Position numbers and translations under genes: made by a program
Assembly (NCBI GenBank): GCA_038127595.1
Contig: JAYPIC010000005.1
Location: 2,371 to 28,934 of the forward strand
Reading direction: 5' to 3'
DNA length: 26,564 nucleotides
From: a bacterium
Lineage (GTDB): Bacteria; Fidelibacterota; Marinisomatia; Marinisomatales; UBA1611
The notes under the pieces: model-generated
The model's database searches: none
Seen by the model: only the letters and a program-made list of their open reading frames with translations
Told to the model about the DNA's origin: nothing
Part shown: positions 20,406 to 26,447 of the stretch, in pieces
How positions within the stretch are numbered: position 1 is the stretch's first letter
Layout of the letters: each line of letters starts with the position of its first letter

Positions 20406-20482
20406 TGGTACGCCTGAGAGGACTCGAACCCCTAACCTTTTGGTCCGTAGCCAAACGCTCTATCCAATTGAGCTACAGGCGC
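20406..20482 (-). tRNA. tRNA-Arg (anticodon ACG), 77 nt with encoded CCA
   Basis: Reverse complement GCGCCTGTAGCTCAATTGGATAGAGCGTTTGGCTACGGACCAAAAGGTTAGGGGTTCGAGTCCTCTCAGGCGTACCA. The anticodon arm is TTTGG-CTACGGA-CCAAA and the T-loop is TTCGAGT. Confidence 0.97.
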
Positions 20483-20597: not shown

Positions 20598-21437
20598 ATG
20601 TCATCTGCTAAAAAATTATTTTTTGCCATTTCAATAATATTCTTACTATCCTGTGAGGAAAGAGATTATCAGGATTGTAACGGCATAATAAATGGTGGTG
20701 CTTATTATGATGATTGCGGTGTATGCGTAGGTGGGAGGACAGGACTTACTGAATGCATAGTGGACTGTAATGGTCAACTTGGTGGTACAGCCTATTTAAA
20801 TCAATGCGAACTTTGTGTTGAGGGTAACACTACCCTACCACAAGATTCATGCAGTAATCTAAACTTTAATGGATATAGCTACAAAACAGTTATAATAGGA
20901 CAACAAGTATGGCTAGCAGAAGACCTAAAGACAGATCAATTTAGCGACGGTTCAACTATACCTGATTATAACTCAGAGGTAATTGATTCATCTGGAACTA
21001 AGTTTGTGACAAATTTAAATGATTCAGAAAATAGAAGATTTTATTACAGTGCCAAGACTTTAAACCAATTAGCTCCAATTGGATGGAGGATCCCAACTAA
21101 ATTAGATGTTGAAAATTTAATAAATGAATTAGGTGGTGATAGTACCGCAGGTGGCAAACTAAAAGACGCTGGTTATAATTCATGGGATTTCCCCAATCAA
21201 TTTGCTACAAATGAGTCTGGTTTTGCAGCTTTAGGAACGGGATATAGAAATAATAGTGGCAATTTAGTAGATACGCGGAGAAGATATTCCTTTTGGACAC
21301 AAGACACCTTGAGAGTAATAGATAGCATTGAGACTTATCATTGGACATTGAAATTAAGCTTTGATAGTAATAATGCTTTATTAGTGCCTGACAGCTCAGG
21401 AATTGGTCATCCTATAAGATTAATAAAAGATCATTAA
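20598..21437 (+). CDS. Lipoprotein with two Cys-rich repeats and a Fibrobacter succinogenes major paralogous (FISUMP)-like domain
   Basis: Lipobox LLSC; two DCNG...GG.AY...C..CV.G.T units; YKTVIIGQQVWLAEDL, APIGWRIPT, AGGKLK and NESGFAAL motifs. Confidence 0.8.
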   Translation: MSSAKKLFFAISIIFLLSCEERDYQDCNGIINGGAYYDDCGVCVGGRTGLTECIVDCNGQLGGTAYLNQCELCVEGNTTLPQDSCSNLNFNGYSYKTVIIGQQVWLAEDLKTDQFSDGSTIPDYNSEVIDSSGTKFVTNLNDSENRRFYYSAKTLNQLAPIGWRIPTKLDVENLINELGGDSTAGGKLKDAGYNSWDFPNQFATNESGFAALGTGYRNNSGNLVDTRRRYSFWTQDTLRVIDSIETYHWTLKLSFDSNNALLVPDSSGIGHPIRLIKDH

Positions 21438-21460: not shown

Positions 21461-22345
21461 ATGATTAATAAATCAAAAATAATTTTTTCATTTATAATTC
21501 TTTTTTCTTGCACCAAACAATTAAATGAAGATACCCAAGATATAATAGACCCTATTCAGTTCATTTGGATTTCATCAAGTGAGAATCAAAGAAGTCTTTC
21601 AGGAATTAAAGATATATACATAAACATTAAAAACTTTCCAAAAGTCTGGAAGATATACCTTTCGATTATCAATAACCCTGCTGTAAATAATCAAAATAGA
21701 ATACTATTAGATACCACTAGCACAATAGACCAGGATATTTATCAGACCTATTGGGATACTAAGTTGTACCCAAATGGCGAATATGAACTATACGCAGAAC
21801 TCTTTGATAGTTCAAATAATAGAATTTTTACTACTGAGTTTTTCAACATAAATAATTACAAAATGCTTAATGTAAAAAATAATTTAGAATCACCTGTTGA
21901 TTATCAAATTAATGGTGCGTTTGGAACGATTTTTTCAAACTCTTTTGGATTAATCGAAGTTGAGAACTTTTTTAATGATTTAATTTTAACAAGCTTTTCA
22001 GCAGGTATGCCCTGCGGAATTAGTTTAAGTAATTCATTCGTCATTAAACCAGATAGCTCAAATATTCCAATTATTATTAATCCAGATAGCAGTGTATTCT
22101 TCCTTAAAATTCAAAATAGTCAGAATTCATATATAGATTCTGTTACCATAAAAAACAATTTTTTATATGAGCGCTGTAATAATATTTCCATTCCAAATGA
22201 TAATCAGGTGTATTCCATTGGCTATTTTTCATTAAATAATGGAAGTGAAACTAAAATTATAGCAAACTATGGAAATACAGTAGATACAATCGATGTAAAT
22301 TTTTATGATCAATCAATAAAAATTGATACGTTGATTATTAATTAA
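21461..22345 (+). CDS. Hypothetical beta-rich lipoprotein (possible Ig-like domain)
   Basis: Lipobox LFSC; WDTKLYPNGEYELYAE resembles a bacterial Ig-like strand motif. Confidence 0.65.
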   Translation: MINKSKIIFSFIILFSCTKQLNEDTQDIIDPIQFIWISSSENQRSLSGIKDIYINIKNFPKVWKIYLSIINNPAVNNQNRILLDTTSTIDQDIYQTYWDTKLYPNGEYELYAELFDSSNNRIFTTEFFNINNYKMLNVKNNLESPVDYQINGAFGTIFSNSFGLIEVENFFNDLILTSFSAGMPCGISLSNSFVIKPDSSNIPIIINPDSSVFFLKIQNSQNSYIDSVTIKNNFLYERCNNISIPNDNQVYSIGYFSLNNGSETKIIANYGNTVDTIDVNFYDQSIKIDTLIIN

Positions 22346-22370: not shown

Positions 22371-23858
22371 TTACTTAAGAAGTAAGGCCTTTTTGGTTTC
22401 AATTATTGTTGGAGTTTGTATTTTTACAAAATACATCCCTGATGGAAAAGCTGAAGCATCCCAACTAACTCTATGATATCCTGATGTTAGATATCTCTCA
22501 TTTATCAATGTCGACACCCTCTCTCCTAGCATATTATATATAGAAATAGAGACTGTAGTTTCAGATGGTAAGGAATATGAGACTGTTAAAAATGGATTGA
22601 ATGGATTAGGATACAAACTATGAATGTTAGGCCTATTTGGAAGCGAAATTGATTCCTGTGTGTAGAAATCTTTATTGTATACAGTTTTTATCTCAAAACC
22701 ATCTTTTGATGCAATAACAATATCGCTTACTTCCAAAACTGACCTATTAGGAATACTAAGAATGATTTCCGTTAAAGAGTTAGTACCCGAGGCGTCATAA
22801 GCAAATACATTGTATTCATTATTATTTGATATGTAGTTAATCGACCAACCATTAGGAAGTGATATATTTTCCAAATGTTTACCGATATCTTTTAAGGTTG
22901 ATAATTTAAATTGAAAACCACCTATCTCAGAATCTGACTCAATGATAATTTTGTCAGTGACTGTGTTTTCTACAATTGATAAAATTCCCTCATCAGTACC
23001 TATTTGCATTGATGGGATATTATCGAATAAAACCATATTGACTAAGTTAACAACATCAATAATATTTACATTATTGTCATAATTAATATTACCCGCCTGC
23101 TGCCTACATTCAGATATTGGAATTTCTTCAGAATCATCAAGCTGCAAATGATCTAACAGAGCAACAACATCAAAAAAGTTTATTTTTGGTGAACCAGATT
23201 CGTCCAAGTCTCCATTTACATTGCCAACAACATATACATTAGCATTATCACAAATATCACATGCATCACCTTTACCATCTTCGTCAATGTCTGATTGAGT
23301 AGGATTGTATATTTCTGGGCAATTATCAATATCTACATCAAAACCATCCTCATCTAGATCAGATGGTAAATCTTCAAGCGCTTGGTTAATTGTTGCAATA
23401 ATTGCTGTTTGATTATATCCTGATTCTGAATAAAGCACTTCACCGTTACCCCCAATTACTACATTATGAGGAATGTACCCTACACCGAATAATCCATATA
23501 CATTATTTATATCCTCGACAATCGGATGGGAAAGACCAAAAGTGGTCCCCCAACTTGTGCAACTATACGGTTGATTCCAGTCTTGGCCAAATGCGACGAG
23601 AACTAATGAATCATTCGTGTATTGTTGTAAAACTGCTTCTGCCTGCGGAGCCTCCGTAGTGCAGGAAGGTCACCACGAAGTAAAAAAATTAATCCACGTA
23701 ACTCTATCTCTACCATGTTCGTCATAGGACCATGTACCATCGCCATTGTGACAAATATCACCAGAAAAATCATCCACATAACTTCCTACGGTGTAAGTCT
23801 GACTGAAAGAGAAAGAAAATAAAAGTATTATGCCTAAAAATGTCTTCATTCTTAACAT
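22371..23858 (-). CDS. Predicted secreted selenoprotein (495 aa, Sec63): thioredoxin/TlpA-like UxxC domain, TSP3 repeat, dockerin-like domain and T9SS type A-like C-terminal domain
   Basis: ORFs 23670-23858 and 22371-23438 share a frame (starts 420 nt apart). The only stop between them is TGA 23672-23670. Read-through gives WINFFTSW-U-PSCTTEAPQAEAVLQQY...GYIPHNVVIGGNGEVLYSESGY. An alternative start is ATG 23849. Confidence 0.88.
23636..23669 (-). promoter_or_regulatory. Candidate bacterial SECIS element
   Basis: Immediately 3' of the UGA: CUU(C)CUGC-A-CU-A-CGGA-[GGC]-UCCG-C-AG-GCAG-AAG. The apical loop begins with G, 17 nt after the UGA. The segment is GC-rich in an AT-rich window. Folded by eye only. 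Confidence 0.72.
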
Positions 23859-23910: not shown

Positions 23911-25896
23911 TTAGAAAATTGCACTATATGAAAGTTTCAGCCCATCATTAAAAGGCTGAAGAATTCTGCAAATTCCATTGCTGCATACTAACCCACCCTG
24001 TATGGAGCCGTACAAAAACGATATTCGCTGAGTTGATGAAATATTATAAGAAAATTCAAGAGCGACCCATTTATTTTTAGTAAAGGATGGAGAAACTTTC
24101 CTATTTCGTTCACCAGTAAAGTACTTTATATCTCCATAAACCAAAGCCTCTAATGGATTATACTTAGGGTCAACGGTTACAATTTCTTGAACATTCGTCC
24201 AATCATAGTTTAATGTTAAAGCCCACTTAGACGCTTTCCCAACAGAAATTGAAATCATTCTATTTATTTGAAAGGGTATCTGATCAGGATAATTACTAGT
24301 TGTCTGATTAACGTATACATCTGGGTTATCAATATCATTTAAAACCCATGCAGAATCTGCATAATTGTAAAATCCGCCGGCATTACCCTTTTTTACATTA
24401 TTTTTATATCTTTCCTGGTAGGCAAATCCAAACCCTAAAGAATAACCATTATTCATGGCATATGTAAAATCAATAGGAATAGTGAAAGATTTAGAGCTTT
24501 GATAAAGTATAGTCTCAATTTGATTATTGATTGTATCAATACTTACTAATTGGGAATCTAAATAAAACCAATCATCTCCGTACCATAATGAGTCTGTGTA
24601 TTGCCATACTTCAGAAATTGAATTTGAATATCCTTCAAAATATCGATTAACCTTTGGTACTTCCTTGTTTGTACCAAATGCAGTTCTAAACTGAAGCTTA
24701 TTGTCAAAAACATAACCATTTAGCTCGGTATAGAATTCTTTATACGGCAAAGCACTAAAATTCTCTGTTGGTAACAATCCAGGAACCTCGTTGCGTTCCC
24801 ACTTTATTGGACTAACCGAGGTCCAAGTATCGTTCCTACTCAGATGAGAATATTGGCTAACGATTTGAAAACCATTTGGCAATCCACCAGAAAGCTCGAT
24901 TTGAAAACCTCTTTCATCATTCGCATTTGTTTGATGGGCAGCTCTTCCTAAGAAACTGTGATTTTGCTCACGATACAAAATAGGCATTACTTGATAATCA
25001 ATTCTATTACCATAATTATTGATTATATAATCAGTATCAACAGGACTTAGCCTGTCAAAACTATATTTTTTATATTCAAAAAATAGTGACCAACTATCTG
25101 AATAAAAGTTAGAATTAAAATAGAATGCAGAACCTTTTTTTAACGGCGATAATGTCTCAATTTCCTGACCAGAGAAGTTTGTCTGATATGTCCTAGTTTT
25201 TGATTGTTTATCTACATATTCCGCAAATATGTCCATATTGGAACCATACCAGGATAAATAAGCACCATGAAGCCGATGGTTTATATCTACTGTATCCATT
25301 ACTCCTAAGGGCTTTAATTGATGTAGTTCATTAGACTGTAAAAATGATACGCCATAACTGAACGGATATGCATCAAAATTAATGTTTGTAGCATCGATAT
25401 TATGGGTAAACTCAAATTCAGGATATCTTAAATCAGAACCAAGCTGAGCATTTATTGTTTTTCCACTCAATTGAGTAACACTAATATTATCTGCCATATA
25501 ATTTATTAAGTAACCTCTTGAGCTATTGTCAAAATCAATACTCTGATCATCAAGTTGCGATAAAACTAACCCTCGACCCCAGACCTCATAAACATCACCA
25601 AATTTTAGTGTCCAAGGACCAGAACTATATTCTACTCTGTACTTTCTCAAATCTTTTATAGGGAAGCCAAGCTCAGGTGGGTCTGAGTATTCGTACTGTA
25701 GCCAAGCTGAAAAATTATTTTTAAAAAAATTTAAATCCATCCTGTTTTCCATGTAAGTAAAATCATCATAACTATCACCAAAATTCATTACAATACCAGC
25801 ATTATAATTCCAGAAATCTAAGTCAAATACCGAAAAAGGATTTTCTTCTGCATTTAAAAAAGAAAAAGTCGCAATAGCTAAAAATTTCTTATTCAT
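23911..25896 (-). CDS. DUF6029-like outer-membrane beta-barrel protein
   Basis: Probable start ATG 25896 (MNKKFLAIATFSFLNA signal); GDVYEVWGRGLVL; C-terminal QGGLVCSNGICR..P; terminal Phe; aromatic-rich beta strands. Confidence 0.75.
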   Translation of the reverse strand: MNKKFLAIATFSFLNAEENPFSVFDLDFWNYNAGIVMNFGDSYDDFTYMENRMDLNFFKNNFSAWLQYEYSDPPELGFPIKDLRKYRVEYSSGPWTLKFGDVYEVWGRGLVLSQLDDQSIDFDNSSRGYLINYMADNISVTQLSGKTINAQLGSDLRYPEFEFTHNIDATNINFDAYPFSYGVSFLQSNELHQLKPLGVMDTVDINHRLHGAYLSWYGSNMDIFAEYVDKQSKTRTYQTNFSGQEIETLSPLKKGSAFYFNSNFYSDSWSLFFEYKKYSFDRLSPVDTDYIINNYGNRIDYQVMPILYREQNHSFLGRAAHQTNANDERGFQIELSGGLPNGFQIVSQYSHLSRNDTWTSVSPIKWERNEVPGLLPTENFSALPYKEFYTELNGYVFDNKLQFRTAFGTNKEVPKVNRYFEGYSNSISEVWQYTDSLWYGDDWFYLDSQLVSIDTINNQIETILYQSSKSFTIPIDFTYAMNNGYSLGFGFAYQERYKNNVKKGNAGGFYNYADSAWVLNDIDNPDVYVNQTTSNYPDQIPFQINRMISISVGKASKWALTLNYDWTNVQEIVTVDPKYNPLEALVYGDIKYFTGERNRKVSPSFTKNKWVALEFSYNISSTQRISFLYGSIQGGLVCSNGICRILQPFNDGLKLSYSAIF

Positions 25897-25937
25897 TACT
25901 TTTGAAATTGGCAAATATGGTATGTTTAAATTCTGAA

Positions 25938-26447
25938 TTATTTTTTCAAGGATAGTAGAGATTGTATTTGGTCTTTTATCTCTAATTCTTCCCCAGGCAT
26001 ATATCCCTGATGTCGCCATCTAACAGTAGCATCCTGATTAATCAAAATCAAATTAGGCATAATCTGACCATTTAGCTTTTTGGAAATCTGCTGATTTGGA
26101 TCTATGCCAACTAAAAAATCATACCCTTTAGAATTCACATAAGCTTTTACTTTACCAAGGCTTCTAGGAGTATCTTGATTGATCATAAGAACCTGAAACC
26201 CCTCAGAATTAAATTCATTATGATATTGATTAAGATGTTTCATTACCTGCTTACAAGGCTTGCACCAAGTTGCCCAAAAATCAAGCAGAACAGGTCCTGT
26301 TTTTAATAATTTGTAAAGAGTAGTTTTTTTACCATTAAGTAATTTTAAGTCAATATCTGGTATTTTTCCTAACGAGGGGTTTTCTTGACCCAACAAAACT
26401 ATAAAGCTTGTTAAAATAACTATGGATATTATTTTAATTTTTTTCAT
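25938..26447 (-). CDS. TlpA/ResA-like thiol-disulfide oxidoreductase, exported
   Basis: N-terminal signal or anchor; LLDFWATWCKPC; cis-Pro motif IMPNLILI. Confidence 0.92.
   Translation of the reverse strand: MKKIKIISIVILTSFIVLLGQENPSLGKIPDIDLKLLNGKKTTLYKLLKTGPVLLDFWATWCKPCKQVMKHLNQYHNEFNSEGFQVLMINQDTPRSLGKVKAYVNSKGYDFLVGIDPNQQISKKLNGQIMPNLILINQDATVRWRHQGYMPGEELEIKDQIQSLLSLKK

Follow-up and report, generated by a model that had tools for sequence, protein, structure and literature searches.

A gene of 495 codons with a single in-frame TGA is located on the minus strand of a 26,564-nucleotide stretch of DNA (hereafter, the window), which comprises positions 2,371 to 28,934 of contig JAYPIC010000005.1 (GenBank assembly GCA_038127595.1; G000:C5:2371-28934 in our numbering). 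The genome, which is 95.8% complete, belongs to a marine bacterium of the Neomarinimicrobiota (Marinimicrobia/SAR406). The coding frame occupies 22374..23858 and is followed by a TAA stop at 22371-22373; an alternative start, the ATG at 23849, would give 492 codons. When the minus strand of 22371-23858 was translated with TGA read as U (selenocysteine, Sec), 495 residues and the terminal TAA were obtained, and the sole TGA of the frame was codon 63 (23670..23672). Under translation table 11, the frame is cut into an open reading frame (ORF) of 62 amino acid residues (23670-23858), which ends in this TGA, and an ORF of 355 amino acid residues (22371-23438). The residues around the TGA read VTWINFFTSW-U-PSCTTEAPQAEAV, and the motif W-U-P-S-C lies at the site where ResA/TlpA enzymes carry W-C-x-x-C. 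A previous interpretation made from the letters of the window (the sequence-only reading) had joined the two ORFs into one hidden 495-residue selenoprotein with a UxxC active site. Both the split and the read-through frame with exactly one TGA at codon 63 were reproduced, and the strings that it quoted (FFTSW-U-PSC, GYIPHNVVI and the FWATWCKPC of a TlpA-like ORF at 25938-26447 of the minus strand) were all found in the translations. Based on the comparisons described below, the locus is very probably one gene for a 495-residue selenoprotein, in which the UGA at codon 63 specifies Sec.

All features of the gene lie on its coding, minus strand. The protein starts with a probable Sec-type signal peptide (residues 1-20, 23799..23858), MLRMKTFLGIILLFSFSFSQ, which was recognized by eye and, as had been suggested earlier, is supplied by the short ORF; the orthologs have similar hydrophobic N-termini. 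The signal peptide is followed by a redoxin, TlpA/ResA-like thioredoxin-fold domain (residues 24-151, 23406..23789), which was found with Pfam, with sequences of the Protein Data Bank (PDB) and with Foldseek. Two Pfam families match across the TGA, namely AhpC-TSA (PF00578; residues 26-143, 33.4 bits, cut-off 26) and Redoxin (PF08534; residues 24-151, 30.4 bits, cut-off 26.6), and a redoxin domain was matched in 13 of 13 orthologs. The active-site motif consists of W62-U63-P-S-C66 with E69 and P71, and a cis-Pro motif is formed by I129-P130. In sequence matches to the PDB (ResA 4nmu, StoA 3erw, entry 2l5o, and DsbE/TlpA-like entries), the U took the position of the first CxxC cysteine, E69 and P71 were aligned with the Glu and Pro of the solved members, and I129-P130 with their cis-Pro. 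Foldseek matched TlpA-like chains with TMt values of 0.62-0.67 on a model of the whole protein that is itself poor (pLDDT 63.3, pTM 0.33). Two further cysteines, C36 and C100, are invariant in the ortholog alignment, and from this pattern they could form a structural disulfide. Assignment to the peroxiredoxins (Prx) proper was considered and rejected, given that the motif is S-W-U-P-S-C, with U at the first CxxC-type position, and not T/S-x-x-C(U); the table of Zhang & Gladyshev 2008 (PMC2398784) likewise assigns TxxU to Prx and UxxC to the Prx-like families. No Lys or Arg occurs between R52 and K196 (residues 53-196, window 23271-23702), and the tryptic peptide bearing the Sec would have 144 residues, which makes it invisible to tryptic metaproteomics and to standard proteomics.

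The read-through protein was searched in six frames against its own genome and 40 relatives (41 genomes). A full-length match with exactly one internal TGA was found in 13 of the 41 genomes, at 39-100% identity with the window gene itself included; 12 of these 13 frames cover the query from residue 12 or an earlier one through residue 495, and that of G029 covers residues 46-495; the identities of the orthologs to the window protein are 39-95%. The 13 full-length proteins were aligned together with one short paralog, and in all 14 sequences the U occupies the same column, flanked by the invariant residues W62, C66, E69, A70 and P71. For a wider comparison, 37 loci were chosen from the list of genome matches, N-terminal matches without stops included, and 33 of their frames match the redoxin domain. 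Among these, 25 (from 17 genomes) have W-U-x-x-C, five have W-C-x-x-C, two have lost the motif and the remaining one is the latter half of a Cys form that is interrupted by TAG. In the DNA, the U column holds TGA in 25 of 25 U forms, and TGT (four) or TGC (one) in the five Cys forms. This alternation of TGA, TGT and TGC in one column is, by sequence, the classic Sec/Cys pattern, and the TGA at codon 63 is more than a chance event because it recurs in the same column in all 25 U-type homologs examined.

The genome also contains the genes for Sec insertion. The selA gene (387 bits) is directly followed by selB (341.6 bits); selD (389 bits; G000:C23:9610-10530, locus L003) itself appears as a selenoprotein gene, with a TGA at its active site (GAGUACK); and a tRNA-Sec was found at 62.2 bits, which ARAGORN also calls as tRNA-SeC with anticodon TCA.

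A putative selenocysteine insertion sequence (SECIS)-like hairpin starts 2 nt after the UGA (23636..23668), as determined from a single-sequence fold and a pairing test on the 25 U forms. Its apical stem is CGGA/UCCG, with the loop GGC 18-20 nt past the UGA, and a G-rich apical loop roughly this far from the UGA is consistent with the bacterial SECIS model in the literature. For the pairing test, a helix of 11 pairs was specified by the analyst after RNAalifold had been run, and the same partners slid by 1-3 columns were used as controls. The helix was paired in 86.5% of the cells, as compared with 30-44% in the slid controls; changes on both sides were observed in six of the 11 pairs (for example, C-G to U-A in four sequences), and the covariation score was reached by none of 500 shuffles. 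Codon choice in this region was also restricted. The Glu codon at +6, within the stem, is GAG in 25 of 25 U forms, and the Glu codon at +11, which served as an internal control, is GAA in 23 of 25; Ala at +7 is GCT in 24 of 25 and Pro at +8 is CCG in 19 of 25. The one Cys form that keeps E-A-P uses GAA GCC CCA and has no such hairpin. The frozen in-stem codons, set against the control codon, speak for selection on the RNA, and the structure is interpreted as a SECIS-like stem-loop directly 3' of the UGA with a predicted role in the recruitment of SelB.

The stretch, or part of it, was present in 20 public sequencing runs from 13 studies, which are mostly marine metagenomes and include six RNA libraries. 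Variants were examined in the contigs of two DNA and two RNA runs from four studies, all of which cover the TGA, and no other letter was found at 23670-23672. Third codon positions of the read-through frame, located both before and after the TGA, account for 35 of the 39 variant places listed, and none of the 39 falls within 23584-23675, which includes the hairpin. Contigs from RNA libraries of two studies (records 6 and 14) bridge the TGA; this is not proof of transcription. Taken together, those of the checks proposed along with the sequence-only reading that were run turned out in its favor: homologs have TGA or a Cys codon at the site and are conserved before and after it, neither TAA or TAG at the site nor a loss of conservation upstream of the TGA was seen among the orthologs, selA, selB, selC (tRNA-Sec) and selD were all located in the genome, and the contigs of four runs from four studies show no other letter at the TGA. 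Its interpretation of the gene as a UxxC selenoprotein is thus supported by homolog codons, the hairpin and the Sec machinery.

Several observations weigh against this interpretation. Sec at codon 63 is a prediction from sequence, and the redoxin domain was only moderately modelled, with block pLDDT values of 43-86. With respect to the hairpin, the fold of the single sequence was unremarkable (z = -1.17; 21 of 200 shuffles gave a fold as good), RNAalifold retained the 4-bp apical stem alone when run on the 25 sequences, and Rfam at gathering thresholds detected no SECIS family in the whole window, its sole match being a tRNA (20409-20482, minus strand). Protein constraint may account for part of the covariation signal, since the 25 sequences encode protein and are related to one another, and E-x-P is also conserved in the Cys-type ResA and StoA. 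Finally, selB of this assembly (G000:C71:5272-7089; L005:1492-3342) has an in-frame TAA at codon 271 (L005:2302-2304); if this TAA is real, the strain could not insert Sec.

The last point leads to the alternative to which we assign a slim chance, namely that the family consists of selenoproteins and that Sec insertion has been lost in this strain through a broken selB, which would leave a 62-residue stub or a low level of read-through with Trp or Cys. The TAA occurs in this assembly alone, and selB is open in six of the six other genomes of the genus that hold it (none was shown in two of the eight others, which are 64-69% complete); codon 271 is TCA in the nearest relative and AAT or AAC in five others. 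The TAA is therefore one base from the TCA of the nearest relative, the 346 codons that follow it are still open, and the 60-residue stretch around it is 91.7% identical to that relative. The selenoprotein gene is intact, as are its hairpin and the U-containing selD. Given a single C-to-A difference in a well-kept frame, the TAA looks like a consensus or assembly error or a very recent lesion. The other two alternatives dispense with Sec altogether. That the gene is a pseudogene created by a nonsense mutation, or two genes (a 62-residue peptide and a 355-residue protein of the type IX secretion system, T9SS), is what the two ORFs under table 11 and the public annotation, which names the tail alone, would suggest. 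We regard it as highly improbable, given that a single redoxin domain spans the TGA, that the TGA persists in homologs with as little as 38% protein identity, and that the population variants before and after it fall at third codon positions; moreover, the 355-residue ORF on its own would have no signal peptide and only half of the first domain. Least probable of all, to the point of being almost negligible, is that TGA is a sense codon (genetic code 4 or 25, for Trp or Gly) and that the residue is not Sec. All six of the fetched public proteins that bear the N-terminus, full-length versions of 492-498 residues, do read W at the site (SWWPSC). However, TGA is otherwise an ordinary stop in this organism: of the 868 stop-to-stop frames in the genome that reach 300 codons, 156 end with TGA, as do four of the 24 frames in the window that reach 150 codons. 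In addition, the site corresponds in alignments to the catalytic Cys of CxxC, relatives use TGT or TGC and not TGG, and the genes of the Sec machinery are all present.

The reading of UGA codon 63 as Sec is accordingly preferred here. Downstream of the redoxin domain, a thrombospondin type-3 (TSP3) calcium-binding repeat with three invariant Cys (DNC...GDACDxCDN) was identified at residues 166-204 (23247..23363). An ortholog profile matched the type-3 repeats of COMP and thrombospondin-2 over positions 167-204 with E values of 1e-33 to 1e-31, and Pfam TSP_3 was matched by 13 of 13 orthologs (best E 3e-6). The next two modules, a predicted dockerin with two F-hand-like repeats (residues ~209-282, 23013..23234) and a predicted cohesin (residues ~289-404, 22647..22994), were assigned on a structure model. 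The model of residues 205-412 was built on 34 sequences (pLDDT 79.4, pTM 0.70). Its residues 5-76 matched the type I dockerin 2ccl_B (Z 9.4, root-mean-square deviation (rmsd) 2.2, 62 aligned) and its residues 6-78 the dockerin 4fl4_A (Z 9.0, rmsd 1.7, 60 aligned). The cohesin matches of the same VIA-align search were 6kgc_A (Z 10.0, rmsd 3.7, 113 aligned), 2vn5_A (Z 9.5) and 2xdh_A (Z 9.3). The best 20 rows were all chains of cohesin or dockerin entries, and in Foldseek the top 24 rows among the matches listed all came from cohesin entries. At the sequence level, Pfam Dockerin_1 was weakly matched (two of 13 orthologs, best E 0.011), and no cohesin family was among the Pfam families listed for the 13 orthologs. 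Antibody-like tandem Ig chains had been mixed with cohesins in the Foldseek list for the whole protein; they were set aside when the model of residues 205-412 resolved this region into a dockerin and a cohesin. The identity of the two modules is thus proposed on the ground that their predicted folds match those of known members.

Binding between the two modules was also modelled. A complex between the cohesin and the dockerin of this protein was predicted with a score of 0.39, as compared with 0.00 for the best of three controls, which counts as weak support on the scale used; the contacts agreed between runs to at least 58%, and the pLDDT of the partner was at least 40. Among solved complexes, 116 of 157 reach the mark applied, as do two of 215 mismatched pairs; at scores of 0.60 or below, it is reached by only 18 of the 157 and by both mismatches. 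Because cohesin-dockerin complexes have already been solved, the pass may reflect likeness alone. When the cohesin and the TSP3-dockerin part were used as single-sequence queries against the genome (95.8% complete), only the gene itself was detected, a search by which distant modules could be missed; as no further copy of either was found, no separate binding partner was identified.

The C-terminus (residues 415-490, 22389..22616) is a T9SS type A sorting domain, which agrees with the secretion-type C-terminus noted earlier. It scored above both cut-offs (PF18962, 48.1 bits against 27; TIGR04183, 44.7 bits against 23) and was present in 13 of 13 orthologs. The genome also encodes SprA (507 bits) and PorU (570 bits) of the T9SS machinery, both above their cut-offs, as well as dozens of further frames with a sorting domain. 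In Bacteroidota, PorU removes such sorting domains and links the cargo to the surface.

These features suggest the following course of events. UGA codon 63 would be recoded as Sec, with the stem-loop 2 nt past the UGA recruiting SelB and Sec-tRNA(Sec) to the ribosome, as in the general bacterial mechanism. The product would be an extracytoplasmic thiol-disulfide oxidoreductase of the ResA/TlpA type, with Sec in place of the attacking Cys (U-P-S-C). The signal peptide would direct it across the inner membrane, and since the type A C-terminal domain marks cargo of type IX secretion, the product probably ends up outside the cell or on its surface. The segment that links head and tail would comprise the TSP3 calcium-binding repeat, the dockerin and the cohesin, of which the last two are protein-protein docking modules.

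The tail was also observed on other proteins. Two frames of ~600 amino acid residues with one TGA each, L034 (G009:C8) and L025 (G005:C14), have another head on a tail of TSP3, dockerin, cohesin and T9SS domain; against the NCBIfam model of the Omp28-related selenoprotein (NF045500), L025 scored 124.5 bits, below the cut-off of 200. Two more frames, L036 and L037 (590 and 603 amino acid residues), with one TGA each, match the tail of the window protein. Paralogs of the head were noted as well. In the same genome, a second, single-domain paralog (G000:C29:5500-5988, L045) has a 209-residue frame with W-U-K-P-C and a similar hairpin after its TGA. In the relative G010, at least six matches to the family lie within ~13 kb (G010:C1:258845-271913), a group that looks like a local paralog cluster; some of them contain TGA, one contains TAA and one is free of stops.

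The window was further examined for the genes adjacent to the selenoprotein gene. Directly upstream on the same strand lies a DUF6029 gene (23911..26019; Pfam PF19494, 98.3 bits), which is a conserved neighbor: a homolog of 44-97% identity was found directly upstream of the ortholog in eight of 12 loci, with a weak match of 26% in a ninth. Further upstream, also on the minus strand, is the TlpA/ResA-like CxxC redoxin mentioned above (25938..26447; Pfam Redoxin 76.8 bits, AhpC-TSA 76 bits), which matched the NCBIfam ResA subfamily with an E value of 1.8e-21, below its cut-off. The DUF6029 ORF as listed, of 702 amino acid residues, overlaps the end of this ORF by 82 bases (25938-26019), and its true start is probably further downstream. 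On the downstream side, a 294-residue ORF on the plus strand (21461..22345) without a Pfam or NCBIfam match has a homolog on the same side of the ortholog in the four same-genus loci examined (G001, G002, G003 and G007). It is followed by a gene for a Fibrobacter-succinogenes-major-domain protein (20598..21437, plus strand) and the tRNA gene (20409..20482, minus strand; Rfam, 66.3 bits).

In public databases, the protein search yielded 592 relatives at E values of 1e-10 or below, of which the best 120 were listed and ten were fetched. Most of the best 120 of the 592 are tails of 355-410 amino acid residues, and those that have a name are called ‘T9SS type A sorting domain-containing protein’ or ‘hypothetical protein’. 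Among the ten fetched proteins, six have an N-terminus that reads SWWPSC, with TGA taken as Trp (P0002, P0003, P0007, P0009, P0011 and P0044), two begin past the TGA and two have another head on the same tail. The SWWPSC forms are, we infer, best explained by gene callers that applied a TGA=Trp model to short contigs. The possibility that the full-length public proteins (64-93% identity) are Cys forms was rejected, given that W is read at the site.

The family itself has been published. Zhang & Gladyshev 2008 (PMC2398784) list in Table 2 a family ‘Prx-like 3’ (pfam08534, UxxC) of 68 sequences, more abundant in marine samples, and their Dataset S1 includes eight reads with WUPSCTTEAP. One of these reads, JCVI_READ_1091143199283 (‘#Prx-like 3’), covers residues 28-295 of the window protein with ~6 differences in 268 residues as counted by eye, including WUPSCTTEAPQAEAV. 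The same paper describes a fused domain, ‘Unknown_3’, with ‘three conserved Cys including CxxC’; these three Cys correspond to C180, C200 and C203 of the window protein. Its Figure S1D aligns the TSP3-dockerin stretch, and the TSP3 repeat forms the first part of ‘Unknown_3’. Paralogs of the family are also found in Dataset S1, some under ‘Prx-like 1’ and one like the C29 copy of the genome studied here. By sequence, the window protein belongs to the published ‘Prx-like 3’ family of the Global Ocean Sampling (GOS) data with its ‘Unknown_3’ fusion, and the selenoprotein has been known since 2008. As regards the proposal of a hidden selenoprotein, the gene is indeed split by standard annotation, in which the table-11 calls keep the tail of 355-410 residues only, but with a near-identical read in the 2008 GOS list of selenoproteins the protein was not hidden from the literature. 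In the parts of PMC2398784 drawn on here, no mention was found of the organism, of the TSP3 and dockerin nature of ‘Unknown_3’, of a cohesin or of a T9SS tail, and the term ‘signal peptide’ is absent from its main text. Likewise, the terms Prx-like, Trx-like, Marinimicrobi, secret, signal peptide and extracellular do not occur in the main text of the BSepDB paper (PMC13326102), and a literature search for T9SS-secreted, Omp28-linked or Marinimicrobia selenoproteins returned nothing relevant.

The Sec assignment as such consequently adds nothing to the literature, and what is new is descriptive: the named tail domains, the SECIS consensus and the annotation errors. The full architecture can now be given as signal peptide, redoxin (UxxC), TSP3 repeat, dockerin, cohesin and T9SS sorting domain, and ‘Unknown_3’ of 2008 can be named as a TSP3 repeat and a dockerin, followed by a cohesin and a T9SS tail. 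Annotation under table 11 drops the catalytic head of an abundant marine protein, and other pipelines put Trp at the Sec site. The T9SS tail would place the selenoenzyme outside the outer membrane, where, to our knowledge, no known reductant reaches it. As a speculative and on balance rather unlikely extension, Marinimicrobia may export selenoenzymes via T9SS, the dockerin and cohesin of the tail may link them in a calcium-dependent manner into chains or mixed assemblies, and at least two Sec heads, the ResA-like one and an Omp28-related one, both with U-x-x-C, may be borne on that tail. If this were true, an extracellular selenium-based redox layer would exist in one of the abundant uncultured phyla of the ocean.

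The window protein was finally compared with known systems. Its closest counterparts in the literature, the ‘Prx-like 3’ entries of PMC2398784, are single reads, whereas the window gene is a full frame. The 2022 review PMC9312934 lists a ‘Prx-like thiol:disulfide oxidoreductase’ class, which shares the Pfam domain and the UxxC motif with the window protein. This class is broad and has a deltaproteobacterial prototype, whereas the window protein comes from marine Marinimicrobia; the passages on the class in that review make no mention of a secretion tail, and the terms ‘secreted’, ‘signal peptide’ and ‘extracellular’ are absent from them. With ResA, StoA, TlpA and CcmG (PDB 4nmu, 3erw and 1st9), the catalytic head shares the fold, the W-C-x-x-C-x-x-E-x-P layout and the cis-Pro loop, with E values from 2.7e-7 for the single sequence to 1.7e-14 for the profile (4nmu). 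It differs from them in having Sec for the first Cys and the additional conserved Cys pair C36 and C100, and it falls below the NCBIfam cut-offs for ResA, DsbE and StoA. Moreover, those proteins are membrane-anchored in the periplasm, whereas the window protein is fused to the putative docking modules and a T9SS tail.

The Omp28-related selenoprotein (NF045500) is similar to the window protein in the TSP3-dockerin stretch common to both, in which residues 150-277 match model positions 257-376 (E 1e-29). Its head is different, being Omp28-like with the motif Q-U-P-Y-C, and at 104 bits against a cut-off of 200 the window protein is not a member. A true member, at 518 bits, is the L034 frame of the relative G009, which has the same tail of dockerin, cohesin and T9SS domain. 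With regard to the docking modules, non-cellulosomal cohesins and dockerins, such as the cohesin of Archaeoglobus fulgidus (PDB 2xdh), are matched by the predicted folds (cohesin Z 9.3-10.0, dockerin Z 9.0-9.4). In contrast to those systems, both modules are combined here in one T9SS-tagged, putative selenoprotein of a Gram-negative marine bacterium, in which they may bind each other.

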